Below, piece after piece: positions 1,005 to 55,896 of a stretch of DNA of 59,945 nt (the first letter of the stretch is position 1; each line of letters opens with the position of its first letter). The stretch comes from Patescibacteria group bacterium (GTDB lineage: Bacteria > Patescibacteriota > Minisyncoccia > 2-02-FULL-40-12 > GWA2-44-9). The notes under the pieces are model-generated. The model searched no databases. It was not told where the DNA came from and saw only the letters and a program-made list of their open reading frames with translations. The position numbers were made by a program, and so were the translations under genes. The DNA is taken from assembly GCA_038062135.1 (NCBI GenBank), contig JBBTXT010000007.1:1-59945 (forward strand). Reading direction: 5' to 3'.

Positions 1005-1042
1005 CCGCTTTATCTCTGGGAGGAAGATAAGGCGGTTTTTTT
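1005..1042 (+). terminator. rho-independent terminator
   Basis: Hairpin CCGCTTTATCT / AGATAAGGCGG (one G:U pair) followed by TTTTTTT. Confidence 0.75.
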
Positions 1043-1077
1043 ATTTTAATTTTGCATAAGCAAAATTAAAATAAAAA
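1038..1077. repeat. AT-rich near-perfect palindrome (TTATTTTAATTTTGC-ATAA-GCAAAATTAAAATAA)
   Basis: 13-18 bp complementary arms around a 4-nt loop, between two convergent GC hairpin terminators. Confidence 0.7.
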
Positions 1078-3447: not shown

Positions 3448-5304
3448 GTGCCTATGGGAAATATAGACACGGGATACAGTTCGCTGACCGAGTACAAAGA
3501 GTCCGTAGAAAAGGATGTTAAAAATTTGGTTAGAAAAAAGGGAAAAGAAAAACAAGAAAGAGATTACATCAAACATTCGTCTTATGCGATATCTCGTATA
3601 AAGGAGGAGATATGCTTATTGTTTAATAATAAATACGATCTAACGGGCGATACAAAAAAAATAAACATCTCATTGCCTCCCAAGCATATACATGCCGATC
3701 TAACGGTATCAGTTTTTGATTACTCAAAAACTCTTAGGAAGTCTCCAGCTCTTCTAGCGAGAGAACTCGCGGACTTTATTAATACTTCGCAAAAAAAATA
3801 CATTGAATCCGTCAGCGCTAATAATGGTTATATAAATATCTTAATAAACAAAAAAGAATTTTATAGCCAAATCCTTTCTTCCGTTTTAAGACTTGGCGAC
3901 AAATATGGTTTCTCGGATGTTTATAAGGGTAAGACGGTGCTTATAGACTACTCTTCCCCGAATATTGCTAAGCCGTTTGGAATTGGCCATTTACGCTCCA
4001 CAGTAATAGGACAGGCATTGGCGAATTTATATTATGCTGTAGGTTATTCGGTAATACGTGATAATCATTTGGGGGATTGGGGAACACAATTTGGTGCGCT
4101 TATTTATGCGTATACGCATTGGGGCGATGAAGCCGTTATTGCCGCCAACCCAATTGAGGAATTAAAGAATTTGTATGTCCGATTTACAGAGGAAGCAAGA
4201 GAACAACCAGCACTGAAAGAGGAAGCACGGAAATTATTTTCTCAATTAGAACAGGGCGATGAAGGGTTAGTTATCCTTTGGAAAAAATTTAGAGAGCTAA
4301 GTCTTCAAGAATTCCAAAAAACTTATGATAGGTTAAATGTTTCGTTTGATTGTATGTTGGGTGAAAGTTTTTACACGGAAGATTTTAATAAAGTTATCCG
4401 AGATCTAAAAGAGAAAGGAATCGCAAAAGATTCTGAAGATGGTGCTGTTATTGTGGAAAATCTGGACAACTTACCATCATTCTTACTACAAAAGAATGAT
4501 GGCTCGACCATTTATATTTTACGCGATGTAATAACTGTGATGTATAGAAAACGTGTTTTTAATCCCGATGTGGTTCTTTATGTTGTTGGTTCCGAACAAA
4601 AACTGAATTTTCAGCAACTTTTTGCTCTTTGTAAGAAGGCCGGCTATTCGGGTGATATTAAAATGGAGCATGTGGATTTCGGGTTGGTTTTAATAGGTGG
4701 CGTGAAGATGTCTACCAGAAAGGGGACACTGGTCAACCTTGATGAAGTGCTTAAGCAGGTGATCGCGAAGGCACGCGATCTGCTTTTGGAAAAGGGTGAG
4801 TTGGATGTTTCTGTTCTAAATAAAACCTCCGATACTATTGGCATAAGTTCTGTTATCTATGCAGACCTTAAGCAAAACCGTAATAGTAATATTGAATTTG
4901 ATTGGCAAAAAATGTTGAGTTTGGAGTCTGGTAGCAGTGTTTATCTCCAATATACTTATGCCAGAATTGCTTCCATCCTTACCAAGACAAATGTCGCGCT
5001 CCCATTTAAGAAAATTGACCCTATATATTTTGTGCAGGATGCGCTCGAATTCAAGTTGGCTGTTAGATTGAGTTTATTTCCTGAAACAGTCTTGCATTCG
5101 GTTGAAAATAATACCCCACATTTTATCAGCGCCTATTTAGAAGAATTAGCTGCTGAATTTAATAATTTTTATACGCAAGTTTCTATATTAAAGACTGCTG
5201 ATAGCGCGTTACAAAAATCAAGGATTGCGCTAATAGCCGCGGTTGCCACCACAATAAGGAATGGACTTTCTTTATTAAATATCCCAACTCTCTCGAGACT
5301 CTGA
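3448..5304 (+). CDS. argS: arginine--tRNA ligase (about 45-aa N-terminal extension; start GTG 3448 or ATG 3454)
   Basis: SSPNIAKPFGIGHLRST (HIGH region), MSTRKG (KMSK-like), DWGTQFG, YLQYTYARI. AT-rich compared with its neighbours. Confidence 0.95.
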   Translation: MPMGNIDTGYSSLTEYKESVEKDVKNLVRKKGKEKQERDYIKHSSYAISRIKEEICLLFNNKYDLTGDTKKINISLPPKHIHADLTVSVFDYSKTLRKSPALLARELADFINTSQKKYIESVSANNGYINILINKKEFYSQILSSVLRLGDKYGFSDVYKGKTVLIDYSSPNIAKPFGIGHLRSTVIGQALANLYYAVGYSVIRDNHLGDWGTQFGALIYAYTHWGDEAVIAANPIEELKNLYVRFTEEAREQPALKEEARKLFSQLEQGDEGLVILWKKFRELSLQEFQKTYDRLNVSFDCMLGESFYTEDFNKVIRDLKEKGIAKDSEDGAVIVENLDNLPSFLLQKNDGSTIYILRDVITVMYRKRVFNPDVVLYVVGSEQKLNFQQLFALCKKAGYSGDIKMEHVDFGLVLIGGVKMSTRKGTLVNLDEVLKQVIAKARDLLLEKGELDVSVLNKTSDTIGISSVIYADLKQNRNSNIEFDWQKMLSLESGSSVYLQYTYARIASILTKTNVALPFKKIDPIYFVQDALEFKLAVRLSLFPETVLHSVENNTPHFISAYLEELAAEFNNFYTQVSILKTADSALQKSRIALIAAVATTIRNGLSLLNIPTLSRL

Positions 5305-7878: not shown

Positions 7879-10800
7879 GTGACTATGCCTGCCGTTGACT
7901 TTGGAAAGCTGGAAGAAAAAATACTAGCGTTCTGGGAAGAGCACAAGATTTTTGAAAAAAGCCTTGAATTGCGGGGCGGAAAGCGCAAAAAGACTTTCGT
8001 GTTCTTTGAAGGCCCGCCGACTGCGAACGGCCGCACGCACGTCGGTCATTTTTTGACGCGCATTTTTAAAGACGTCTATGGGCGCTACAAAACCATGCGT
8101 GGGTATTATGTTCTGCGCAAGGCCGGCTGGGATACTCACGGTCTGCCGGTTGAACTTGAAGTAGAAAAAGAACTTGGCTTCAAAAGTAAAAAAGATATTG
8201 AGGCGTACGGCGTCGCGGCGTTTAATAAAAAGTGCCGCGAGAACGTTTGGAAATACAAAAAAGAGTGGGAAGTCATGACGCGCCGGATGGGGTTCTGGGT
8301 TGATACGGAGCATCCGTATGTAACCTACGCCAATCCGTACATTGAATCTCTCTGGAATATCATCAAGACCGTGGCGGATAAAAAGCTTTTATACTTGGCG
8401 CATCGCGTGGTGCCTTACTGCACACGTTGTGGAACCGGACTCTCAACGCACGAACTTGGTCAACCAGGAGCCTATAAAACAGTTACGGATACCTCGGTCT
8501 ATATTAAATTCAAATTAAAGTCGGGGCAAAAAATAGGTGAGCACACAGTTCCAAGTAATGCCTTTGTGCTTGCTTGGACAACTACACCCTGGACATTACC
8601 GGGCAATGTTGCGCTAGCGGTTGGTAAAGATATTGAGTATGTAATCTCAACACAGGAAATTAATAATAAAAAAGAAACGCTCATTCTTTCTAAAGATCTC
8701 TATGAAAGACCAACAGCAGGATTTCTTCCTGAACCCGATATATCTTTCTCGTTGCCCGAATATGTTAAGGGTGTAGACCTGGTCGGGCTTGAATACGAGC
8801 CGCTCTTTGATGTGCCCGCCTTAAAATCCGAAACATCGTACAAAATTTATCCAGCAGACTTTGTGACGACCACCGATGGTACGGGCGTGGTCCACACCGC
8901 CGTCATGTACGGCGAGGATGACTACAATCTCGGCAACGCGCTCGGTTTGCCAAAAGTACACACAGTGGATGAGGCTGGAAAGTTTTTCGGAGTTTCCGAA
9001 GAACTGAATGGAAAATATGTCAAAGCTGGAAAAACCGAAGAAACGATCATAAAAAGCTTAGAAGCCCGTGGGCTGTTATTAAAAACCGAAGCCTACGAAC
9101 ATGAATACCCTCACTGTTGGCGTTGCGATACTCCGCTCCTGTATTACGCCAAGAGTTCTTGGTTTATCAAGATGTCGGCGGTTAATGAGCAAATTCTTAA
9201 GGCTAACAGCACCATAAACTGGTTTCCGGACCACATAAAAGAAGGAAGGTTTGGCCAATGGCTTAAAGAAGGAAAAGATTGGGCGTTTTCGCGCGAACGC
9301 TATTGGGGCACGCCGTTGCCGGTTTGGAAATGTGTCAAATGTTCCGCTTATCATGTTATTGGTTCGATGGAAGATTTAAAAAAGGAAGCGGTCTCGCAAT
9401 CGGGAAATAATTATTTTTTGATGCGTCACGACCTTTCCGGGCGTGATGAAAACGGAAAGATGCTCGTCAGTTCAAGGAGAGAGACCGATACTTATCATTT
9501 GACCGAAGCCGGCCAAAAACACGCGCAAGAAACCTTGAAACGTTTAAAGCGCAAGCTGAACATTGACGTTATCTACGCGTCACCGTTCCTAAGAACGAAA
9601 GAAACCGCCGAAATTGCCGGGCAAGTTTTCCATTTGCCGGTTGTTGAGGATGAACGATTATCAGAAATACGGCATGGCATTGAATGCGAAGGCAAGAGCC
9701 ATCAGCAATGCGTATTGGACCGCGAACGCAGGAGCTTTGACACGGTTGAAGACGGCAGTGAAACTCTCAACATGGTTCGCGAACGCGTGATGACATTTAT
9801 GCGAGAAGTTGACGGGCAATACCGCAATAAAAATATTCTTGTAGTCAGCCACGGCGATCCGATCTGGGTTCTTGAAAAAATGGCTGATGGGAAGAGCGAG
9901 GCGGAGGTTGTTGCTGAACATGAATCCAACCAGGGCTGGATGCCGCAGATCGGCGAAATCAAAAAAATAGAATGGCCGGCACTTCCTCGCAACGAAAGAG
10001 GGGAACTGGATCTCCATAAGCCTTATGTTGATGAGGTGACTTTTCAGTGCGACCAGTGCGGCGCGCAGATGCACCGCGTGCCGGAGCTGTGTGACGTTTG
10101 GTTTGATTCCGGTTCCATGCCGTTCGCGCAGTGGCATTGGCCGTTTGAAAATCAAAAACTTTTCCAGTCCCAATACCCGGCGGATTTTATTGTGGAAGCG
10201 GTGGATCAAACCCGCGGCTGGTTTTATACGCTCCTGGCCGTAGCCACGCTTATGGATCGCCCAGCACCGTTTAAAAATGTAATTGTGCTTGGATTAACTT
10301 TGGATCCGAAGGGCATGAAGATGTCCAAGTCAAAAGGGAATGTTATGTATTCAGGTGAAGCGATGGATGCCGCCGGCGTTGATGCCGCACGCTGGCGAAT
10401 GTTCGTCATGAGTTCGCCGGAAGATAATAAGGTTATTTCCGCCCAGGATTTCCAGGATACGTTAAACGGCTTTCTCTCCACGCTTCAGAACTGCCTAAGG
10501 TTTTACGAATTGTATACCCAGACTAACCAATCGCCATCCGGCGATGTACAGCCGAATATCCTGGATCGCTGGCTTTCTTCAAGACTTCATAATGTTATCC
10601 AGGGCGTGACCGAAAGTTTGGAAAACTATAACCCGACCGGAGCTGCACGCACGCTTGAACAGTTTGTGGTGGAGGATTTCTCAAACTGGTGGTTGCGCCG
10701 CTCGCGAAAACGTCCCGAAGCGCTGACTTTGTTGCGGCAAGCTCTCCTACATATCTCAAAACTGGTTGCGCCGTTTATTCCGTTCACAGCCGAAGATATG

Positions 10801-11391
10801 TTCGCGCGCCTGAATGGGCCTGAAGCGGTTGGTCAGGAGAGCGTGCACCTGGCAGATTGGCCTAAAGCAGAGAAGAAGTTTATTAACGCTAAACTTGAAG
10901 AAACGATGATCAGGGTGCGCGAGATTGTCGCTGCCGGATTGGCTATCCGCAAAGAAAAGCAGATCAAAGTTCGCCAACCATTGGCGTCTATAATCTTACC
11001 CGACAAGAAACTTGATGCGGGTCTTGAGGCGCTTATTAAAGACGAACTCAACGTAAAGGGCGTGGTTTATAAGAAAGGCGTTGAGCTGTCGCTGGACATG
11101 AGTATGTCGCCGGAACTTATTGCTGAAGGATATGCCCGCGAGGCAATGCGCCAGATTCAAGACCTTCGCAAAGATGCCGGCTATCGTTTTGACGACAAGG
11201 CATATTGCCAGTGGTTTACGGAAGATTCCGAATTGTCTGAAGCGTTGTTAAAATGGGGCGATGATATTAAGCGCGACACTTCGCTGTCGGAGTTCGTTAA
11301 ACTTATCCTTGACGACAAGCGCGCCTACGATATTGAAAAAGAATTTGAAATCGTTCCCGGTAAAAAAATATGGGTCGGTATTAAAAAGTAA
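7879..11391 (+). CDS. ileS: isoleucine--tRNA ligase carrying an internal histidine-phosphatase domain insertion
   Basis: PTANGRTHVGH (HIGH), KMSKSKGN (KMSKS), WAFSRERYWGTPLP, Zn knuckles CWRC / CVKC / CDQCG. 1170 aa. Start GTG 7879 or ATG 7885. Confidence 0.95.
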   Translation: MTMPAVDFGKLEEKILAFWEEHKIFEKSLELRGGKRKKTFVFFEGPPTANGRTHVGHFLTRIFKDVYGRYKTMRGYYVLRKAGWDTHGLPVELEVEKELGFKSKKDIEAYGVAAFNKKCRENVWKYKKEWEVMTRRMGFWVDTEHPYVTYANPYIESLWNIIKTVADKKLLYLAHRVVPYCTRCGTGLSTHELGQPGAYKTVTDTSVYIKFKLKSGQKIGEHTVPSNAFVLAWTTTPWTLPGNVALAVGKDIEYVISTQEINNKKETLILSKDLYERPTAGFLPEPDISFSLPEYVKGVDLVGLEYEPLFDVPALKSETSYKIYPADFVTTTDGTGVVHTAVMYGEDDYNLGNALGLPKVHTVDEAGKFFGVSEELNGKYVKAGKTEETIIKSLEARGLLLKTEAYEHEYPHCWRCDTPLLYYAKSSWFIKMSAVNEQILKANSTINWFPDHIKEGRFGQWLKEGKDWAFSRERYWGTPLPVWKCVKCSAYHVIGSMEDLKKEAVSQSGNNYFLMRHDLSGRDENGKMLVSSRRETDTYHLTEAGQKHAQETLKRLKRKLNIDVIYASPFLRTKETAEIAGQVFHLPVVEDERLSEIRHGIECEGKSHQQCVLDRERRSFDTVEDGSETLNMVRERVMTFMREVDGQYRNKNILVVSHGDPIWVLEKMADGKSEAEVVAEHESNQGWMPQIGEIKKIEWPALPRNERGELDLHKPYVDEVTFQCDQCGAQMHRVPELCDVWFDSGSMPFAQWHWPFENQKLFQSQYPADFIVEAVDQTRGWFYTLLAVATLMDRPAPFKNVIVLGLTLDPKGMKMSKSKGNVMYSGEAMDAAGVDAARWRMFVMSSPEDNKVISAQDFQDTLNGFLSTLQNCLRFYELYTQTNQSPSGDVQPNILDRWLSSRLHNVIQGVTESLENYNPTGAARTLEQFVVEDFSNWWLRRSRKRPEALTLLRQALLHISKLVAPFIPFTAEDMFARLNGPEAVGQESVHLADWPKAEKKFINAKLEETMIRVREIVAAGLAIRKEKQIKVRQPLASIILPDKKLDAGLEALIKDELNVKGVVYKKGVELSLDMSMSPELIAEGYAREAMRQIQDLRKDAGYRFDDKAYCQWFTEDSELSEALLKWGDDIKRDTSLSEFVKLILDDKRAYDIEKEFEIVPGKKIWVGIKK
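9406..9990 (+). other. in-frame histidine-phosphatase (PGAM-like) domain inserted in IleRS
   Basis: Motifs in order: FLMRHDLSGRDENG, ASPFLRTKETAEI, ERLSEIRHGIECEG, ILVVSHGDPIWVL. Flanked by IleRS segments HVIGSMEDLKK and ELDLHKPYVDEV. Confidence 0.8.
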
Positions 11392-19462: not shown

Positions 19463-19505
19463 TGAAGTGTAGAGTAGTATGTAGGTACGCCTTCGGGCGG
19501 TTTTT

Positions 19506-19535
19506 GAAACAAGTTTTTAAAGAAAAACTTGTTTC
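19506..19535. repeat. perfect 13-bp palindrome GAAACAAGTTTTT-AAAG-AAAAACTTGTTTC between gyrB and secE
   Basis: Seen directly. No flanking T-run, so it could be a terminator variant or an operator. Confidence 0.6.
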
Positions 19536-19599
19536 AGGCAGAATCGCAGTCCGAAGGACTTAAGCAATTCCGACTTTCAAAAAGATATACTTAAAGACA

Positions 19600-31706: not shown

Positions 31707-31725
31707 AAGCAATAAAGAAGCCTGT

Positions 31726-31807
31726 GCAGGTTATTTTGGAAACCTGCCATATTTATTATAAATTAATGTCCCGCCGCCTAACCCGCATGGTTTCCAAAAT
31801 AACCTGC
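31726..31807 (-). promoter_or_regulatory. hairpin-enclosed conserved core element, copy A (19 nt upstream of dnaE ATG)
   Basis: Perfect 19-bp arms GCAGGTTATTTTGGAAACC / GGTTTCCAAAATAACCTGC around the core ATGCGGGTTAGGCGGCGGGACATTAATTTATAATAAATATGGCA (minus-strand reading). Confidence 0.8.
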
Positions 31808-31826
31808 TTCGGCTAAGACAGCACGT

Positions 31827-31854
31827 ATTCTAGCACTCGTTTCAACGAGCTCAA
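31827..31854 (-). promoter_or_regulatory. candidate promoter TTGAGC-N16-(TGc)TAGAAT upstream of element A / dnaE
   Basis: Reverse complement of 31849-31854 is TTGAGC and of 31827-31832 is TAGAAT. It would place element A inside the dnaE 5' UTR. Confidence 0.4.
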
Positions 31855-32799: not shown

Positions 32800-33495
32800 A
32801 TGCCAGCAAAACCAGCGCCAGAGCTAGAAAGTTTAATTGCTTATCCGTTCAAGGATAAGAACCTCCTTCGCCAAGCATTAACCCATCGTTCATACATCAA
32901 CGAAAACCCTTCCTGGGACGTTGATCACAATGAACGGCTGGAGTTTTTGGGCGACGCCGTGCTTGAACTCGTCGTGACCGAGTATTTGTACCGCAACTAT
33001 CCGAATCCGGAAGGCGAGATGACCAACTGGCGCGCCGCGCTCGTAAACGCAACTATTCTCGCGGGTATTTCCAATGAGTTTAAACTCAATGATTACCTTA
33101 TGCTTTCGCGCGGGGAATCAAAAGATACCGGCCGCGCCCGCCATTACATCTTAGCCAACGCGATGGAGGCGCTTATCGGCGCAATCTATTTGGACGGGGG
33201 ATACGAACCCGCCAAAGTATTCATTGATAAGTTTATCATCACAAAACTTCCCGAGATTATTAAAGACGGAACTTACCGCGACTCAAAAAGCATGTTCCAG
33301 GAGGAATCGCAGGATCGTATGGGCATTACGCCGACCTATGATGTTTTGGAAGAATGGGGACCGGATCATGCTCGCAATTTCCGCGTCGGGGTGTTCCTTG
33401 GTTCTGAAATGATCGCTTCCGGCGAGGGTCCCTCAAAACAAGAAGCCCAACAGCAAGCCGCTCAAGAAGCACTCAAGAAGAAAGGATGGGAGTAG
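32800..33495 (+). CDS. rnc: ribonuclease III
   Basis: Signature NERLEFLGDAVLEL and a C-terminal dsRBD (PSKQEAQQQAAQEAL). Confidence 0.95.
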   Translation: MPAKPAPELESLIAYPFKDKNLLRQALTHRSYINENPSWDVDHNERLEFLGDAVLELVVTEYLYRNYPNPEGEMTNWRAALVNATILAGISNEFKLNDYLMLSRGESKDTGRARHYILANAMEALIGAIYLDGGYEPAKVFIDKFIITKLPEIIKDGTYRDSKSMFQEESQDRMGITPTYDVLEEWGPDHARNFRVGVFLGSEMIASGEGPSKQEAQQQAAQEALKKKGWE

Positions 33496-33916: not shown

Positions 33917-33929
33917 ATCTGATACTCAA

Positions 33930-33955
33930 AAAGGGGCCGCAAGGCCTCTTTTGAT
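33930..33955 (+). terminator. rho-independent terminator AAAAGGGGCC-GCAA-GGCCTCTTTT
   Basis: Seen directly after rpsP. Confidence 0.75.
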
Positions 33956-33963
33956 TGATGAGG

Positions 33964-34055
33964 GTCGGAGCTGTCTCATGCAAGACCGTGCGGGTAGGCA
34001 GTGGGTTCATTTGTTTATAATAAAAAATGGCGGGGCTTGCATGGGACAGTCCGAC
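33964..34055 (+). promoter_or_regulatory. hairpin-enclosed conserved core element, copy C (9 nt upstream of glyA ATG)
   Basis: Arms GTCGGAGCTGTCTCATGCAAGACC / GGCTTGCATGGGACAGTCCGAC (22 bp, two 1-nt bulges, one G:U). Core GTGCGGGTAGGCAGTGGGTTCATTTGTTTATAATAAAAAATGGCGG. Confidence 0.8.
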
Positions 34056-43648: not shown

Positions 43649-46600
43649 ATGGCCAATCTATTCAAAGAAATTCTTCATGGCATTCGCGAAGAACTCGCTT
43701 TTGAGTGCTCACAACCCTATAGGGCAACATTGGTGGCAAGTGAAACTGTTGGGTTTAACACGCAAATGCGGGATCAGCTCGCAGGCTTAAGGAGAGGTCC
43801 CGAAGCCGGATCCGTGGCGGTATTGCCTGCTCCCGTTCCAGAACCCAGCGTTCCGTACGAAAGCCTTAACGACAGATTTGAAAGAGTGGCCAGAGAAATG
43901 AAGCAGGGGTTAAACAAGGATGGGAAACCCCGTAAAAATGCGGTTGAGGTTCTTGAGAGCTTCCCACCATTGGAGAAAGTCCCGAAGCCTGATGATGCGA
44001 AAGTTCAGGCCGATGCCACTCCAAGCACAGAAACTCGTCGCGAACAAACTTCAGACGAAATCAAACAAAAATTAGCACGGCTTAAAAGTGGCGACGAACG
44101 CCTGTCGGCTGCCTATCGTCGCGTGAAAGAACCGGATGAAAAAGAAAAAATTCTTGCCAGATTGGACGACAGCAACAGATACTTCGCTAAGATAAGGGAT
44201 CAATATTTATTAACTCGTTATCGTGAGTTGGCCTCTGCTCACCCGGACGGCCAGTCAGCAACAAATCCGGATAGTGCTTGGCTTGAAAAAGAATCCGAAC
44301 GAGTGCGCGCGTCAGCAAGCGCCGAGCCTCTCGATGTTGAATTTTTTGAATGGGCGCTCTTGAGGGCGAAGAAAAATTCACCAGCTGCCGCAAAGCCTGA
44401 AGCAAATGTACCCATGGCTAAAGCGCAAGCCATAGAAAAACAACCGGTTGATCCAGAGTTCAATTCGCGCAACTTAAAGATAGCGGAATTTTTCGGAAAA
44501 CATCAGAAGGGAGAGTTGAAGGTGGAAGAATATGATGCCTACCGAGAATTGATAGAGGTTCAGATTAAAGCTCTTGAAGAACGGCTTAAAAAACCCCAAA
44601 ATCCAGAGGAGCAGGCCGCTGCTAAACTTCAAATATCTCGTCGGTCAGGGGAGTATACAAATATAACTGGCCATCAGATAGATATGCTGATTACGGAACT
44701 TAAGAGTGGCAAGATTGATAAGGAAAGTATAAAGGATCAGTTTTTGAGGATTAAAGATAACTTTGAGACCAACAAGTCAGGCATGCCACCCCATGAGATA
44801 GAGGCTTCAAAGCTTTATCTTGAAAAAGTGGGTGCTGAACTCGGTTTAGATCAAAAACCCGCAGAAATTGTAAAACCTGAAACTATAACAAAGTCGCAAG
44901 AAACCCAGCAAAAGTCGGCTGTCGGCGAGGCGGGATTGGAAGCGATACAGAAATCAAGAACCTGGAACGATATCCTTTTAGCCATTGATGTCGCTGGTCC
45001 GATGAGGTATCGCGACATGACTCTTTCAACCGAATCAATTCGTAGCAGAATCTCTCGGGTAAAAAAAGAGTTTGAAATGTCTAAGGGCAAAGACAGGCTT
45101 AATTCAATATATGTAAGGGATGCGCTGGATAATTTGCCACAAGGATTGGTGCGACCAGTGATCAATATTTTAGAATCAGAATCCGGGATGATTGCAAAAG
45201 TTCCTGGGGATGAAAAAGAACCGATCAAACCAGTTGAGGTTGTTGACGGACTCACTCAAAAAATTTCAAACGCGCAAACTTGGGAAGAGTTAGACAAAGC
45301 AATACGCGAGGCAGGTTTTGTAAAATCGGGCGAAGTAGAATACTCGCCAATTGATGTTTTGGCACCAATTACTGATCTTAGAGACGCGCTTAAAATGGCA
45401 GACGGAAACAGTAACGCTCCAGTTTTTAGGCGCGGACTCGGAAGCGTTACCCGTGCGAACGGCATCAGAGCCAAGGTGTTAGAGCTTCTTTTCAACGAAA
45501 ATGACGAGAAATATTTTAAAGCTGGCGATCGGGTCGTCTACGAAGGAAAAAAGTGGGACATTGTTAGAATTGAAAACGGCAAGGCGGTAATTCAAACACT
45601 GTCGGAGGATAAAAAGGCAATGCCGGAAAAGGTTGTGCCGTTGAGTGATCTGGCGCTTGAAGTTAAAATGGCCGAGACTCCAGTTAAACTTGAAGAAGAT
45701 TTTGAAAAACCGGTATTTACTTCTCCCACCACTAATGCGATGGGCATGTTTCTTGATGCTACTAATAAGGGAATTGATATATTACAAAAGGGTTTTAAAC
45801 GCAAGGCTACAACAGAAAAAGCGGAAGCTGTATCTGCTGGTCCTGAAACAACTGCTATTCCCGAAGAAGTTCCTCAATGGAAGAAGGAATTTCAGGAACA
45901 GGTAAATAATGCCTACCAGAAAAACATTGGTGGCGGTTGGAGAGGCCGCCTTGCAGACCGCATGAAGGGGGTTGTCACCTTTGGTGCTACTGACTATTTT
46001 GCTGCTGAGAAGTTTCGCACTGGCACTGGTGAGATCGGGAACAAAATGGAAGAAGTTGCCGATCTTTTTATGGAAGAATCCAAGGAAAATAATGAAACGG
46101 CAATAAAATATGCCATAAATTCTATTGTCAGCAAACTTGTAAAACAATTTGAAAATAAGCGAGCCTCTGATGGCCAGCCGATCTTGACAGCAGATAAGCT
46201 GGAGAAGCTTCAGGATCGCCTTATAATTGAACTCCGCGCTATTCAACAAAGCGGGGCATTAAGTGAACGAGGTAAGTTCGTTGCGATTATTCGGGAGCAC
46301 TTAGATCAGGCATGGTGGAAGCGTTATATTTACGGAGTTCAAGAAACGGTGGCGGCAAGCGTTGGGTTGAGCTATGCTATGCCGGTTATTTCCAGCTGGA
46401 TTTTTGGATCCGCCGTCGTGGCCCCGAATGCTCTCCCGGCGGTTAAAAGTCTTCCTACCGCCTGGAAACTGGCAACCGGAGAAAGTCCTTGGACGGTGAG
46501 CGAAAAATTGCTGCGTTCTGCCGGGAAAACGGTTAATCCGGATAATGTGAAACTTGTTGATGCGGCGCTCTGTCGTGAAAATGGCATTGGCGTTCCCGAG

Positions 46601-46696
46601 TGGGCAATACCGGGAAAACTTAAACATGGCGCTGTTGCGGTCGGAACAACGCTGAAAATTGCAAACGCTTTGAGGGTGATCGCCTCAATGCCGTAA
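43649..46696 (+). CDS. large orphan protein, 1015 aa, coiled-coil-rich, with internal ~95-aa tandem duplication and C-terminal hydrophobic segment
   Basis: Repeats begin ..SRTWNDILLAIDVAG.. and ..AQTWEELDKAIREAG... Hydrophobic stretch SVGLSYAMPVISSWIFGSAVVAP near the C-terminus. Confidence 0.7.
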   Translation: MANLFKEILHGIREELAFECSQPYRATLVASETVGFNTQMRDQLAGLRRGPEAGSVAVLPAPVPEPSVPYESLNDRFERVAREMKQGLNKDGKPRKNAVEVLESFPPLEKVPKPDDAKVQADATPSTETRREQTSDEIKQKLARLKSGDERLSAAYRRVKEPDEKEKILARLDDSNRYFAKIRDQYLLTRYRELASAHPDGQSATNPDSAWLEKESERVRASASAEPLDVEFFEWALLRAKKNSPAAAKPEANVPMAKAQAIEKQPVDPEFNSRNLKIAEFFGKHQKGELKVEEYDAYRELIEVQIKALEERLKKPQNPEEQAAAKLQISRRSGEYTNITGHQIDMLITELKSGKIDKESIKDQFLRIKDNFETNKSGMPPHEIEASKLYLEKVGAELGLDQKPAEIVKPETITKSQETQQKSAVGEAGLEAIQKSRTWNDILLAIDVAGPMRYRDMTLSTESIRSRISRVKKEFEMSKGKDRLNSIYVRDALDNLPQGLVRPVINILESESGMIAKVPGDEKEPIKPVEVVDGLTQKISNAQTWEELDKAIREAGFVKSGEVEYSPIDVLAPITDLRDALKMADGNSNAPVFRRGLGSVTRANGIRAKVLELLFNENDEKYFKAGDRVVYEGKKWDIVRIENGKAVIQTLSEDKKAMPEKVVPLSDLALEVKMAETPVKLEEDFEKPVFTSPTTNAMGMFLDATNKGIDILQKGFKRKATTEKAEAVSAGPETTAIPEEVPQWKKEFQEQVNNAYQKNIGGGWRGRLADRMKGVVTFGATDYFAAEKFRTGTGEIGNKMEEVADLFMEESKENNETAIKYAINSIVSKLVKQFENKRASDGQPILTADKLEKLQDRLIIELRAIQQSGALSERGKFVAIIREHLDQAWWKRYIYGVQETVAASVGLSYAMPVISSWIFGSAVVAPNALPAVKSLPTAWKLATGESPWTVSEKLLRSAGKTVNPDNVKLVDAALCRENGIGVPEWAIPGKLKHGAVAVGTTLKIANALRVIASMP

Positions 46697-48092: not shown

Positions 48093-49478
48093 GTGAAACG
48101 GGCTGATCTCATATTTACCGTTCTGCGTCTGCCGGTTGATTTTGCCATGCTTGTTTTGGCGGCAGTAGTAGCTTACTTTCTTCGCACCGAACTCATCTCC
48201 ATTTTCCGTCCGGTATTGTTTGAACTCAACCTTCCGCTTACAAGATACCTGGGGCTAAGTGTATTGACGTCCTTGGCGTTTTTGGCGGCGTTTGCGATTG
48301 TGGGTCTCTATTCGTTTAAGCGTCTTAAGACTACCGAAGAATTCGGTAAAATCCTGGTTGGATGTTCTGCGGGCATTCTTGCGGTTATAATTTATATCTT
48401 TTTGCGCCAAGAGCTTTTTGATTCGCGCTTTCTGGTTCTCGGCGGATGGCTTCTTTCAATTGTGTTTGTTTCCCTTGGAAGAACCGTGGTTAGGGGAATT
48501 CAGCGCGTAGTAGTAGCCCGTCGCGGGTTTGGTATTCATAAACTTATTGTTATCGGCAAAGGAGAAGAGGCTCATAAAATAACTCACTCCATACAAGAAA
48601 ACCCCGCCCTTGGCTATCGGGTTGTCGGTCATCTGGAACGGCCAGATATTCAGGAGCTTTACAATCGGTTTAATGATCTCGGATTGGACGAGGTTATCCT
48701 GGCCGACGATGGGTTTCCTTCCGGCGAGGTGGTTGCGCTCGTGGATTTTTGCAACGAACATCATATCGTTTTTAAATTTGTACCCTCGCTTTATCAATCA
48801 CTCACATCGCGCGTGGAACTTGACGCAATCGCGGATACACCGATTATTGAACTCAAGAGAACGCTATTAGATGGATGGGGCAGGGTAGCCAAGCGCACAT
48901 TTGATATTGTCTCGTCTTTTTGGGGTTTGATTATTTTATCGCCGGTATTTGCCATCCTTACCCTGGCCATTAAATGGGAAACGGCGGGTCCGGTTTTTGC
49001 GAGACTTCGCCGGGTTAGCAAAAATAAAGAATTTAATATGTATAAGTTCCGCAGCATGGTTGAGAATGCTGAAGACCTAAAGCAATTTTTAGAGCAATTT
49101 AACGAACGCAAGGATGGCCCGTTATTCAAAATGGCAAATGATCCGCGCGTTACCAGGGTTGGAAAGTTTATCCGTCGCTGGCGTATTGATGAGCTAGGAC
49201 AGATGATAAACATCCTGAAAGGCGATATGAGCTGGGTCGGTCCTCGCCCGCACCAGCCTGATGAGATTGCGCGTTATCAGAAACACCATAAGCGCGTTCT
49301 TGCGATTAAAGCGGGCGCGTCAGGTCTTGCCCAGGTTTCCGGAAGTTCCAATCTTCCGTTTGAAGAAGAAGTCGCCCTAGACACCTTTTATATTGAAAAC
49401 TGGTCGCTTTGGATGGATATGAAAGTTATTTTAAAGACTGTGCTTAAAATGGTTTCAAAAGATAGAAGCGCAGTATGA
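48093..49478 (+). CDS. polyprenyl-phosphate sugar phosphotransferase (WbaP/bacterial sugar transferase family)
   Basis: 4-5 N-terminal TM helices. C-terminal KRTFDIVSS..SPVFAILTLAIKWETAGPVFARLRRVSKNKEFNMYKFRSM, DELGQMINILKGDMSWVGPRP. Confidence 0.9.
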   Translation: MKRADLIFTVLRLPVDFAMLVLAAVVAYFLRTELISIFRPVLFELNLPLTRYLGLSVLTSLAFLAAFAIVGLYSFKRLKTTEEFGKILVGCSAGILAVIIYIFLRQELFDSRFLVLGGWLLSIVFVSLGRTVVRGIQRVVVARRGFGIHKLIVIGKGEEAHKITHSIQENPALGYRVVGHLERPDIQELYNRFNDLGLDEVILADDGFPSGEVVALVDFCNEHHIVFKFVPSLYQSLTSRVELDAIADTPIIELKRTLLDGWGRVAKRTFDIVSSFWGLIILSPVFAILTLAIKWETAGPVFARLRRVSKNKEFNMYKFRSMVENAEDLKQFLEQFNERKDGPLFKMANDPRVTRVGKFIRRWRIDELGQMINILKGDMSWVGPRPHQPDEIARYQKHHKRVLAIKAGASGLAQVSGSSNLPFEEEVALDTFYIENWSLWMDMKVILKTVLKMVSKDRSAV

Positions 49479-49481
49479 GAT

Positions 49482-49573
49482 CTGCACGGGGTCAGTTTTT
49501 AAACCGTGCGGGTAGGCGGCGGGACCTTAATTTATAATCAGATATGGCAGGTTTAAAAACTGGCTCCGTGCAG
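49482..49573 (+). promoter_or_regulatory. hairpin-enclosed conserved core element, copy B (8 nt upstream of GT4 ATG)
   Basis: Arms CTGCACGGGGTCAGTTTTTAAACC / GGTTTAAAAACTGGCTCCGTGCAG (24 bp including two G:U). Core GTGCGGGTAGGCGGCGGGACCTTAATTTATAATCAGATATGGCA. Confidence 0.8.
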
Positions 49574-49581
49574 ATAAATCT

Positions 49582-55728: not shown

Positions 55729-55767
55729 TCTGTTGGTGCATGGTAAGGTATTTGCACTAGTATTTCA

Positions 55768-55885
55768 GCCTTTGCCACGCTACGCAGGCAATTCGCAGGC
55801 GAGCGAGCTTGGTTCCAAGAGCGAGCCGAGACTAGCGCGAGCGCTCGCAGGAAGCGCTAGACGCGGCCTGTCTGCGGGCAAAGGC
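55768..55885 (+). other. GC-rich structured insert bracketed by GCCTTTGCC / GGCAAAGGC, 11 nt upstream of lepA ATG
   Basis: 9-bp outer stem extended by CGC/GCG and GCAGG/CCTGT. Inner hairpin CTAGCGC..GCGCTAG. Repeated GCGAGC motifs. Confidence 0.6.
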
Positions 55886-55896
55886 CGGATTATCAA

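Follow-up and report, generated by a model that had tools for sequence, protein, structure and literature searches.

Foldback cassettes with a conserved loop and variable paired arms in front of genes of groundwater Patescibacteria

Three copies in the window and their surroundings

The window, i.e., the whole stretch of 59,945 nucleotides of patescibacterial DNA that was analysed, carries three copies of a small repeat, each consisting of a conserved core of 44-45 nt within complementary arms of 19-26 bp. Copy A, of subtype 1, lies upstream of dnaE on the minus strand, where the whole hairpin occupies 31719-31814 (96.7 bits, E 8e-23 against a covariance model); its perfect 19-bp stem is formed by the 5' arm at 31789-31807 and the 3' arm at 31726-31744 on either side of a core at 31745-31788 (minus strand), and is prolonged, past a 3-nt internal loop, by an outer extension of 4 bp (AGCC/GGCT), the dnaE ATG following at 31706-31704 on the same strand. 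Copy B, likewise of subtype 1, spans 49480-49575 on the plus strand (90.4 bits) upstream of a GT4 glycosyltransferase gene; its arms (49480-49505 and 49550-49575) make a stem of 26 bp, including two G:U pairs, around a core at 49506-49549 (plus strand), and the cassette takes up the space from the Bac_transf stop codon (49476-49478) to the GT4 ATG (49582). Copy C, of subtype 2, is found upstream of glyA at 33964-34055 on the plus strand (90.0 bits), with its 5' arm at 33964-33987, its core at 33988-34032 and its 3' arm at 34033-34055, the glyA ATG (34065, plus strand) lying 9 nt past its end. The window also encodes an RNase III with a dsRNA-binding domain (rnc, 32800-33495, plus strand; PF14622, PF00636, and PF00035).

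These copies had been put forward in an original prediction made from the letters alone, and they are real: every sequence quoted there is present, the three score E ~1e-21 to 1e-23 against the covariance model, and the distances given from the end of the 3' arm, as drawn there, to the ATG (19, 8, and 9 nt for A, B, and C) were confirmed. With an inverted-repeat finder, copies A and B come out as the two longest inverted repeats of the window, both with 26-nt arms placed 44 nt apart (88% complementary in A and 92% in B); copy C escaped that program because of a 1-nt bulge, and its fold is the same as that of the other two. RNA folding z-scores of the three range from -5.1 to -7.6, none of 200 shuffles being equally stable. 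The element is not an assembly artefact, a worry already voiced in the prediction, since eight independent assemblies from one population agree letter for letter in copy B. The covariance model run with filters off retrieved no further copy in the window and otherwise only simple terminator hairpins (E>0.03); for this genome, the count is four copies in 69 kb.

As for transcription, a sigma-70-type promoter with an extended -10 (TTGAGC-16-TGcTAGAAT, 31827-31854, minus strand) stands directly upstream of copy A, is conserved in the relative L033 and ends ~12 nt before the outer stem, so that the whole hairpin should sit in the dnaE 5' UTR. In L040, a relative without the element, the same -10 is just 7 nt before the dnaE ATG, which points to a leaderless mRNA. 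Copy B is intercistronic and starts 1-3 nt past the stop codon. Upstream promoter and operon context taken together, co-transcription of the hairpin is likely. Ahead of copy C by ~10 nt, an intrinsic-terminator-like hairpin with a T-run can be read after rpsP (S16) (33928-33953, plus strand) and is conserved in L033 and L035. The cassette as an intrinsic terminator in its own right was rejected, as its loop measures 38-44 nt and no U-run comes after the stem; the tails after the 3' arms read ACAGGCTT, ATAAATCT, and TAATAAGA, and a terminator scan gives sub-hairpins only. Upstream of the genes of this genome, the extended -10 (TGnTAnnnT) is ~7-fold enriched. The window suggests a genome in which Shine-Dalgarno sites are mostly missing and expression relies on extended -10 promoters located 6-7 nt before start codons.

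Distribution and rearrangement among related genomes

The repeat appears to be a previously undescribed small element of uncultivated groundwater Patescibacteria. Searched against Rfam at gathering score, the whole window returned a tmRNA and two tRNAs only, with no match to the element, and copies A and C gave nothing even at E<=10. An exact-pattern scan of the GTDB species representatives found no match (the nearest glyA in GTDB is just 57% identical), and none was found in viral contigs, plasmids and phages; a metagenome scan gave 17 matches, of which two are real, both from the same aquifer. The search for more copies and for covariation in relatives that the original prediction had proposed was carried out with a covariance model and added eight copies from related groundwater genomes, the stems of which do covary. 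As it stands, the family comprises 11 copies (72-100 bits, E 1e-16 to 1e-23) at six sites, which are in front of unrelated genes and include those before dnaE, the GT4 glycosyltransferase gene, glyA and bacA as well as, in one relative, rnc. The related genomes belong to other species (69-83% nucleotide identity by blastn).

Within a subtype, cores are 87-100% identical at orthologous and non-orthologous sites alike (e.g., 44/44 between copy A and L030, 42/45 between copy C and L023), the exception being the inverted copy at the glyA site of L033 (76-80%). That copy aside, orthologous-site cores are 87-98% identical, compared with 78-83% for the genomes overall, and non-orthologous cores of the same subtype reach 89-100%. 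The arms behave differently: over the inner 20 nt, identity is 75-85% between orthologs and 50-60% between paralogs of the same subtype, and no arms are shared between non-orthologous copies. Such conservation of same-subtype cores across species, along with arms that drift and stay paired, argues for purifying selection on the cassette.

Occupancy of the sites varies. More distant relatives (L031, L032, L036, and L044) have empty orthologous junctions with gaps of 12-20 nt, and around the same genes in relatives at 69-70% identity no diverged copies were detected. L036, itself a relative at 69-71% identity, carries its copy elsewhere, in front of rnc. At the dnaE site, the subtype 1 copy of the window has a subtype 2 counterpart in another species, the arms of the two being unrelated; the rnc protein of L033 is 99% identical to that of the window, yet the DNA identity by blastn is 83%, which indicates that the replacement of one subtype by the other between species was not recent. 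Two orthologous copies are flipped, namely the one in L009, otherwise intact and inside an operon, and the one at the glyA site of L033. The first of these flips may be an assembly mis-orientation, the contig having 2x coverage and the arms being perfect. Copies are placed after a promoter or a preceding stop codon and before the following start codon. At five of the six sites, bacA excepted, the cassette is at most ~20 nt from the start codon that it faces; in L023, a copy has an antisense start codon at 14 nt, and the start codon that it faces is ~65 nt away. Within the window, the element does always precede a start codon closely and in the sense orientation, as first claimed, but this does not extend to the relatives, on account of the two inverted orthologs and of the L023 copy.

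Taken together, the empty sites, the new site, the subtype swap and the flips imply that the family behaved as a mobile repeat does, spreading and rearranging, and the earlier verdict of "not a MITE" cannot be kept in that form. Of the classical features of MITEs, presence and absence in multiple copies is observed, whereas the terminal repeats are not conserved and no target-site duplication was seen, i.e., no consistent direct repeat in the flanks of the ten copies inspected.

The flips also bring to mind an inverton, that is, a promoter switch in which the arms would be recombination sites and inversion of the 44-nt core would toggle the downstream gene within a population. Like fimS or the capsule invertons of Bacteroides, the cassette has inverted repeats flanking a promoter-like segment with a -10-like box, both orientations occur at orthologous sites, and surface-glycan glycosyltransferases, typical targets of phase variation, follow one of the sites. 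Several observations nonetheless make this highly improbable: copy B has one orientation only in all eight assemblies of the window's population, without heterogeneity, and flips are seen between species only; arms that differ at every site could not be recognised by a site-specific recombinase, and neither an invertase nor another recombinase gene was found nearby; dnaE, glyA and rnc are housekeeping rather than phase-variable genes; and an invertible segment of 44 bp is far smaller than those of known switches (~150-800 bp, 314 bp in the case of fimS).

Pairing, covariation and strand bias of the stems

In the alignment of the copies, 97% of the stem cells are paired and 16 of the 23 stem pairs have undergone double changes, which bears out the proposal that compensatory stems mark a structured and selected unit. 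None of 500 shuffles matches the observed percentage paired or the covariation score, the count of double-change pairs being equalled by 6 of the 500, and sliding the structure by 1-3 columns makes pairing fall to 34-47%. The putative inner TGC/GCA pairs do not change among copies except from U:A to U:G. The arms are less unrelated between copies than first described: their inner 5-6 nt are conserved (RARMCC/GGNYTY), and beyond these, arms of the same subtype show a weak but significant similarity (z 3.9 for copy A and L009, z 3.3 for copy B and L036). As to what the arms are, the ideas that they act as antisense guides or derive from other loci were rejected, no second match with <=3 mismatches being present in ~200 kb. 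Inverted copies of the local flank were likewise rejected, at the dnaE site because the same flanks bear different arms and at the GT4 site because the native gap is just 12-17 nt.

The defects of the stems are strand-specific. In the window, copy B has its two G:U pairs and copy C its one or two on the gene-sense strand, and none is G:U on the other strand; these counts agree with the original prediction, in which G:U was the sole kind of defect and two further defects of copy C were left out, a bulged G and, three pairs away from the core, an A.G mismatch. The bias persists in the larger sample, with ~9 independent G:U defects on the core-sense strand vs. 1 A:C, and at one stem position of the copy B family the orthologs form a G:C, G:U and A:U series. 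GC skew keeps a single sign over the whole window while the copies face opposite ways (A on the minus strand, B and C on the plus strand), so that the G:U bias tracks transcription and a replication-strand cause of a G:T bias was rejected. Deamination of the non-template strand could account for part of it.

Strand-specific G:T tolerance combined with a conserved loop and a variable stem is also the signature of single-stranded DNA hairpin sites, as known from rolling-circle origins and from the attC sites of integrons. The cassette could accordingly be viewed as a single-stranded DNA hairpin for a structure-specific enzyme, e.g., an HUH nuclease, a Y1 transposase or an attC-like recombinase, or as a priming signal, the loop then being the recognition or nick site and one strand being active. 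The bias does follow the orientation of the core and, as in attC, the structure is kept while the sequence varies and folding is strand-specific. In attC, however, the conserved R''/R' boxes (RYYYAAC/GTTRRRY) sit at the stem base, below a variable top, whereas the cassette is conserved at the top of the hairpin. Moreover, the known loops at nick sites are far smaller than 38-44 nt, neither the window nor the fetched loci with examined gene calls yielded an HUH, integrase or relaxase gene, and copies sitting strictly at gene fronts, co-oriented with transcription, are not what such a site calls for; we deem this possibility very unlikely.

Four copies have perfect arms of 24-27 bp, and between the orthologs of L023 and L043 two adjacent transversion-type compensations have occurred in the stem. 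Perfect stems of this length exceed what an RNA function needs and, with the adjacent compensations, fit a templated correction of the arms at the DNA level. This is what would be expected of a selfish foldback repeat, a MITE-like palindrome devoid of host function whose arms would be matched by template switching or gene conversion and whose core would be kept by the mobilising enzyme. Presence and absence among relatives, the subtype swap at one site and the inversions all sit well with such a repeat. Hints of flank-derived arms go the same way: the stem of L009 takes in the native stop codon (ATGA/TCAT), and the empty site of L044 resembles the outer 5' arm (11 of 17 aligned positions, counted by eye). 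Fixed orthologous copies, though, would not be selected for mobility, and yet their cores are better conserved than the genomes (the L033 copy excepted). Besides, a 9:1 strand-specific G:U bias is unexpected if correction acts on the duplex, and no target-site duplications, no arms shared among non-orthologous copies and no transposase or recombinase genes were found (for the last, in the window and the examined gene calls of the fetched loci, ~200 kb sampled). Purely selfish status is on balance distinctly unlikely.

REP/BIME repeats, which go with RAYT transposases, are also dispersed, intergenic and palindromic and share a GTAG(GC) string with the cassette; their stems are conserved, GC-rich and 20-40 nt long, unlike those described here, and no Y1 transposase gene was seen near the cassette. 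As a rule, the ends of bacterial mobile repeats are conserved and their core varies. The architecture is inverted in the present family, with the loop conserved and the arms free, which raises the question of how the cassette is copied and what reads the loop.

The conserved loop and the proposed role of the cassette

The core is composed of three modules, TGCGGGT(T)AGGCRGYGGG, TTTATAAT and ATGGC, the first two separated by 7-10 variable nt and the last two by a stretch of variable sequence but fixed length (4-5 nt). The middle module includes a bare -10-like hexamer in all copies, i.e., TATAAT in 9 of the 11, TATTAT in 1 and TATGAT in 1, position 4 alone varying. No conserved pairing is predicted within the loop. 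The loop ATG as the start of a leader peptide or of translational coupling was rejected on the grounds that the stop position is inconsistent among copies: the reading frame overlaps the downstream start as ATGA only in B, L030 and C, ends after 4-5 codons in L035, L023 and L043, and runs out of frame for 96 codons in copy A. Resemblances of the core to sigma-54, ECF sigma, IHF, ops/RfaH, tRNA T-loop and REP GTAG motifs are partial matches only, judged by eye; the GTAG(GC) string resembles the REP 5' motif, and no palindrome follows GTAG inside the loop.

A -10 box in the loop had been offered as an alternative from the outset. In its full form, the cassette would be a mobile promoter, with a G-rich factor site, TTTATAAT as -10, a discriminator of 4-5 nt and transcription beginning at the G of ATGGC; the arms would be mere terminal inverted repeats, and the 5' arm would lie outside the functional transcript. 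The modular make-up of the loop, in which conserved blocks are split by stretches varying in sequence and by only 1-3 nt in length, is in keeping with it, as are a hexamer that changes only at its least critical position and the closeness of the copies to the faced start codon at all sites but one, in a genome rich in -10-proximal starts. At glyA, copy C stands behind a terminator with no other -10 there in the window and in L035, and L033, with its inverted copy, has re-created TTTATAAT on the glyA-sense strand and gained a new TGcTATCAT upstream. On the other hand, the core has neither the TG extension at -15/-14 nor a -35, unlike the genome's own promoters, and is absent from the promoter-scan list; its -10 is 4-5 nt away from the ATG compared with 6-7 nt at the leaderless genes of this genome; and dnaE and bacA keep promoters of their own. 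A promoter also leaves the 19-27-bp pairing across species and the one-strand G:U defects unexplained. The suggestion of a -10 box has something in its favour; a cassette that is chiefly a mobile promoter is unlikely.

The reading we prefer, tentatively and with a little less than even confidence, is that of a genus-restricted family of foldback cassettes of ~95-105 nt, in two subtypes, which are mobile in origin and are now selected cis-acting elements before genes, where they are co-transcribed as an RNA hairpin. What the cassette does is most likely to shape the mRNA of the gene behind it. After a first spread as small mobile repeats, the cassettes would be transcribed with the downstream gene and fold into an RNA helix of 19-27 bp capped by a conserved, single-stranded loop of 38 nt. 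RNase III is expected to cut RNA helices of 19-27 bp, and the helix is a putative substrate of the genome's own enzyme; with rnc in the window, RNase III is a plausible trans-acting factor. Its cleavage would free the downstream message from upstream RNA and set a defined short leader, which might matter in a genome where Shine-Dalgarno sites are hardly used and leaderless mRNAs are frequent. RNase III needs no particular loop, and the strictness with which both TGCGGGTAGGCRGYGGG, the G-rich module, and ATGGC are conserved therefore requires another partner, by which the loop may be read sequence-specifically. At the DNA level, TTTATAAT may act in addition as a weak internal -10 promoter where upstream transcription fails to arrive, i.e., at glyA behind its terminator, and arm-to-arm recombination would occasionally flip the cassette. 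Several observations run counter to the cis-acting RNA hairpin: besides the long perfect stems and a loop conservation that RNase III does not call for, the flipped operon copy of L009 is not predicted by a strictly sense-dependent function of the RNA loop, and, as far as the promoter activity is concerned, the features of TTTATAAT and the separate promoters of dnaE and bacA given above count against it here as well.

RNase III processing hairpins, such as the rnc leader of E. coli and those of the phage T7 early mRNA, similarly have a long stem in a 5' UTR or between cistrons, and their cleavage splits the transcript between cistrons and determines both the 5' end of the downstream message and its stability. 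The cassette found directly upstream of rnc in one relative recalls the E. coli rnc leader hairpin. Known sites of this kind are single-locus and have no conserved 38-nt loop, whereas the cassette is dispersed in multiple copies and its cleavage is only predicted. Among repeats, the Correia repeat-enclosed elements (CREE or NEMIS) of Neisseria resemble the cassette in being small (~100-155 bp) and intergenic, with inverted-repeat arms round a core, and in being adjacent to genes and co-transcribed. CREE are reported to be able to generate promoters, to bind IHF, and to bind RNase III, which cleaves them or is kept from doing so, and thereby to control adjacent genes (PMC2649163). The effect proposed for the cassette would be of the same kind. 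CREE have conserved 26-bp terminal inverted repeats and a TA target duplication; the cassette differs in that its loop is conserved, its arms are site-specific, no duplication is visible and its promoter-like box is central, not terminal. In the public plasmid and phage collections, no sequence similarity to the cassette was found.

To our knowledge, almost nothing has been established about the control of gene expression in Patescibacteria (CPR). A cassette placed at the junction between promoter and start codon, conserved across species and with unusually clean covariation, offers a way into the study of transcription and mRNA processing in a lineage that has not been cultivated. A bolder version of the co-transcribed hairpin, which we regard as rather improbable, would make the cassette a plug-in expression element for bacteria with few Shine-Dalgarno sites and many leaderless mRNAs, i.e., an RNA insert that folds by itself, is trimmed by RNase III and has its loop read by a lineage-specific factor. 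The sequence of the stem would then be free provided that it pairs in the RNA, pairing would loop the insert out for RNase III to trim, and flipping between the arms, independent of any recombinase, might serve as a crude on/off or rewiring switch. The short distance from promoter or stop codon to start codon would thereby be restored; at the GT4 site, the folded stop-to-ATG distance is 7-13 nt vs. 12-17 nt at the empty sites.

Copies, distribution and subtypes of the cassette

The cassette is a hairpin of about 95 bases, in which a conserved core of 44-45 nt lies inside variable but complementary arms, and its three copies in the window, namely A (upstream of dnaE), B (upstream of the GT4 gene) and C (upstream of glyA), were all found as the original prediction had described them. 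By inverted-repeat search, the arms of copy B were located at 49480-49505 and 49550-49575 (+) and those of copy A at 31719-31744 and 31789-31814 (-); these are the two longest inverted repeats of the 60-kb window, with an inter-arm spacing of exactly 44 nt in both. Copy C (33964-34055, +) has the same build plus a 1-nt bulge, and the cores of all three can be aligned across 44-45 nt. Folded as RNA, the copies reach -41 to -49 kcal/mol (z -5.1 to -7.6), with 0 shuffles equally stable. Copy B begins 1-3 nt past the Bac_transf stop codon and finishes 6-8 nt short of the GT4 ATG; for copy C, which lies downstream of the S16 terminator, the distance to the glyA ATG is 9 nt. The sample came from groundwater of the Hainich aquifer (0.1-µm fraction), and the host is a patescibacterium of Paceibacterota or Yanofskybacteria-like affiliation. 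Since eight independent assemblies of one population carry copy B in identical form, the earlier worry that the stems could be assembly artefacts is dispelled for this copy.

An exact-pattern scan of the GTDB species representatives gave no cassette match, nor did searches of viral contigs, plasmids and phages, and a relaxed pattern returned 17 matches in a metagenome collection, only two of them with flanking arms (L009 and L023, both from Hainich). Rfam gave no match to the cassette, copies A and C being blank even at E<=10, and no Rfam family fits it. Orthologous neighbourhoods, obtained via homologs of the GT4, rnc and bacA proteins, were then scanned with a covariance model made from six copies, which answered the question of further copies in relatives by raising the total to eleven copies at six sites, all scoring 72-100 bits. 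Copies stand at the dnaE site (A; L033 8959-9043), the Bac_transf/GT4 site (B; L030; L009), the S16/glyA site (C; L035; L033 11174-11258), the peroxiredoxin/bacA site (L023; L043) and the nusB/rnc site (L036), where L numbers denote loci from other genomes or contigs. Two subtypes can be discriminated, i.e., subtype 1 (GGCGGCGGGAC; inner stem AAACC/GGTTT) and subtype 2 (GGCAGTGGGTTC; inner stem AAGACC/GGGCTT, with a conserved A.G mismatch). The sole non-family sequences weakly scored by the model, at window 1038-1077 and 19505-19536, are perfect AT-rich intergenic hairpins with 18-bp and 14-bp arms, respectively, and 4-nt loops, which are probably bidirectional terminators.

Stem pairing, strand bias and selection

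When ten copies are aligned, standard pairs make up 97% of the stem cells, and both sides have changed in 16 of the 23 pairs; none of 500 shuffles matched the observed pairing or covariation score, and sliding the partner by 1-3 columns left only 34-47% paired. Covariation is thus strong, and the inference of the original prediction, a structured element with compensatory stems, stands. Within the loop, RNAalifold predicted no conserved pairing. It is a genuine and conserved element that had not been described before.

The relatives are other species than that of the window: L033 shares 83% nucleotide identity with it, L035 82%, L030 and L009 78-79%, and L036 and L031 69-71%; L043 is 78% identical to L023. 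Against this background, same-subtype cores are 87-100% identical at orthologous and non-orthologous sites alike (e.g., A vs L030, 44/44; C vs L023, 42/45), with the exception of the inverted L033 glyA-site copy (76-80%), and arm identity over the 20 innermost nt is 75-85% in orthologs and 50-60% in paralogs. Because cores are conserved beyond the species-level background and pairing is kept as the arms drift, both core sequence and arm pairing at fixed sites are under purifying selection. Such conservation would not be expected of a decaying selfish repeat, and the view of the cassette as a functionless selfish palindrome is improbable.

On the core-sense strand, i.e., the strand on which the core reads in its standard direction, G:U pairs occur in the main stems of B (two), L030 (three), C (one or two) and the L033 dnaE-site copy (one), and one more is common to L035 and the L033 glyA-site copy; the only A:C among main-stem non-Watson-Crick positions is in L043. 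This amounts to some nine independent G:U defects vs one A:C (one-sided binomial probability ~0.01). At one stem position of the B family, three orthologs carry G:C, G:U and A:U, a series representing the classical RNA route for compensatory change. As GC skew is positive throughout the window, A (-) is oriented oppositely to B and C (+) relative to replication, and the G:U bias tracks core and gene direction, not replication. Between L023:5036-5120 and L043:619-703, two adjacent stem pairs were altered jointly by transversions (CA/TG to AT/AT), for which templated inter-arm copying would be an easier explanation than independent point mutations.

Empty sites, subtype exchange and inversions

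The original prediction had set the element apart from MITEs, but empty sites, a subtype swap and inversions contradict the absence of a mobile origin. In more distant relatives, orthologous junctions are empty, namely Bac_transf-GT4 (17 nt in L031, 12 nt in L032), S16-glyA (20 nt in L036) and peroxiredoxin gene-bacA (79 nt in L044), and the L036 copy lies directly upstream of rnc, where the corresponding window site is empty. At the dnaE site, the window copy is of subtype 1 and the L033 copy of subtype 2, with unrelated arms, and flank homology is lost 2 nt past the common -10 box to be regained shortly before the ATG. In two orthologous copies the orientation is reversed with respect to the adjacent genes. 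The L033 glyA-site copy, with three arm mismatches, has the same orientation in two assemblies, and its inner asymmetry AAGACC/GGGCTT is turned round together with the core, so that inversion of the whole unit is real; the L009 GT4-site copy, whose contig has 2x coverage and whose arms are perfect, is possibly an assembly flip. That the cassette serves as a phase-variation switch is highly improbable, and the defining features of an inverton, an attC site, a REP element or an intrinsic terminator are lacking.

No target-site duplication was seen, no arm had a second genomic match, and no transposase or recombinase was present in the window or in fetched loci with examined gene calls. Beyond the conserved inner 5 nt, arms are weakly similar within a subtype (z up to 3.9), and are therefore homologous, drifted parts of the unit rather than unrelated sequences. 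In L009:2091-2190, the outermost stem pairs ATGA/TCAT take in the native Bac_transf stop codon and the stem extends into native sequence, hinting that arms may grow outward by copying the flank. The empty peroxiredoxin/bacA site of L044 (4032-4110) has GGTTATAATTTCTCT, resembling the outer 5' arm of L023 and L043 (11/17 positions by eye), which may be what is left of a lost copy, or the outer arm could be native sequence.

Promoters, proposed transcript processing and related systems

Most window genes are without a Shine-Dalgarno sequence and in many an extended -10 box (TGnTAnnnT) precedes the start codon by a few nucleotides; this motif shows ~7-fold enrichment over the 60 nt preceding starts and, throughout the window, often lies 6-7 nt before the ATG (e.g., 57770, 41780, 51833, 43649), implying that leaderless mRNAs would be widespread in this organism. 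In relatives without the cassette, dnaE itself is leaderless (TAGAAT, 7 nt, ATG in L040), and in the window copy A stands between the same promoter (31854-31827, -; TTGAGC-16-TGcTAGAAT) and the ATG, which means that it inserted downstream of the -10 box but ahead of the start codon; its whole length should thus form the transcribed leader of dnaE. The L023 copy is antisense to the peroxiredoxin gene, whose ATG is 14 nt away, and is separated by ~65 nt from the ATG of bacA, which has its own promoter (TGaTACAAT-7-ATG).

With a sequence-free yet strictly paired stem of 19-27 bp, a conserved 38-nt loop and sense-strand tolerance of G:U, the cassette is best matched by a hairpin that the transcript forms as a single strand; its being a site for an ssDNA enzyme is very unlikely. 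RNase III cuts helices of ~20 bp or more largely regardless of sequence, and such an enzyme with a dsRNA-binding domain is encoded at 32800-33495, which suggests that read-through transcripts may be cut in the stem, freeing the downstream message with a short, defined leader. This cleavage does not explain the conservation of the loop, organised as TGCGGGT(T)AGGCRGYGGG, 7-10 variable nt, TTTATAAT, 4-5 variable nt and ATGGC, and such modular conservation calls for a sequence-specific reader. A DNA-level promoter role of the hexamer would account for its being variable at position 4 only across copies, for the hexamer-to-ATGGC stretch varying in sequence while keeping its length, for glyA lying downstream of a terminator where there is no second -10 box close by, and for TTTATAAT being re-created on the glyA-sense strand in L033 although the core is inverted. 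However, the hexamer has neither the usual TG extension of this genome nor a -35 box, stands 4-5 nt from ATG instead of 6-7 nt, and two target genes retain their own promoters. That the cassette acts solely as a promoter is fairly unlikely. Tentatively preferred, at somewhat less than even confidence, is a co-transcribed RNase III hairpin cassette whose loop also carries a weak internal promoter.

The nearest functional analogue is the Correia element (CREE) of Neisseria, an inverted-repeat element between genes that is described as able to generate promoters and as a target that RNase III binds or cleaves (PMC2649163). Another close parallel is provided by hairpins in leaders or between cistrons that are processed by RNase III. 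The cassette belongs to neither group, since its conserved and variable parts are exchanged relative to MITEs, and neither target duplication nor homology is found. Its kind, i.e., small intergenic foldback repeats modulating adjacent genes, is already known, and the cassette itself is a new variant, for which the reader of the loop and the way a unit with free arms gets copied are worth following up.

Other inserts occur near start codons. At 55760-55892, a second, unrelated structured insert of ~130 nt, GC-rich and closed by an inverted repeat (55761-55776 / 55877-55892; -72.7 kcal/mol, z -2.7), ends 4 nt before the lepA ATG; in L031 the gap from the MurJ-like gene to lepA is just 45 nt. In L037, whose DNA is ~70% identical to that of the window, a structured in-frame insert of 75 nt (4765-4840, -) with a 9-bp inverted repeat CCCGTTAGA/TCTAACGGG takes the place of the cassette at the dnaE site, after the leaderless promoter TGcTACAAT-7-ATG and ahead of the conserved N-terminus of dnaE. 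Hairpin inserts seem to have a hot spot right after the -10 box. After rnc in L042 (JGI contig, rnc 92% identical), where rpsP (S16) would be expected, a GC-rich stretch of ~450 nt (919-1370) has neither a called gene nor an Rfam match. Elsewhere in the window, an isoleucyl-tRNA synthetase ORF (7879-11391, 1170 aa) has a histidine-phosphatase domain (His_Phos_1) inserted at residues 536-671, and a 1015-aa ORF with no Pfam domain (43649-46696) is conserved and keeps the same length in all assemblies of the population. The tmRNA gene (1-420, -), truncated by the window edge, encodes the tag peptide GNSHSSNYAFA, and smpB lies nearby (1853-2296, -).
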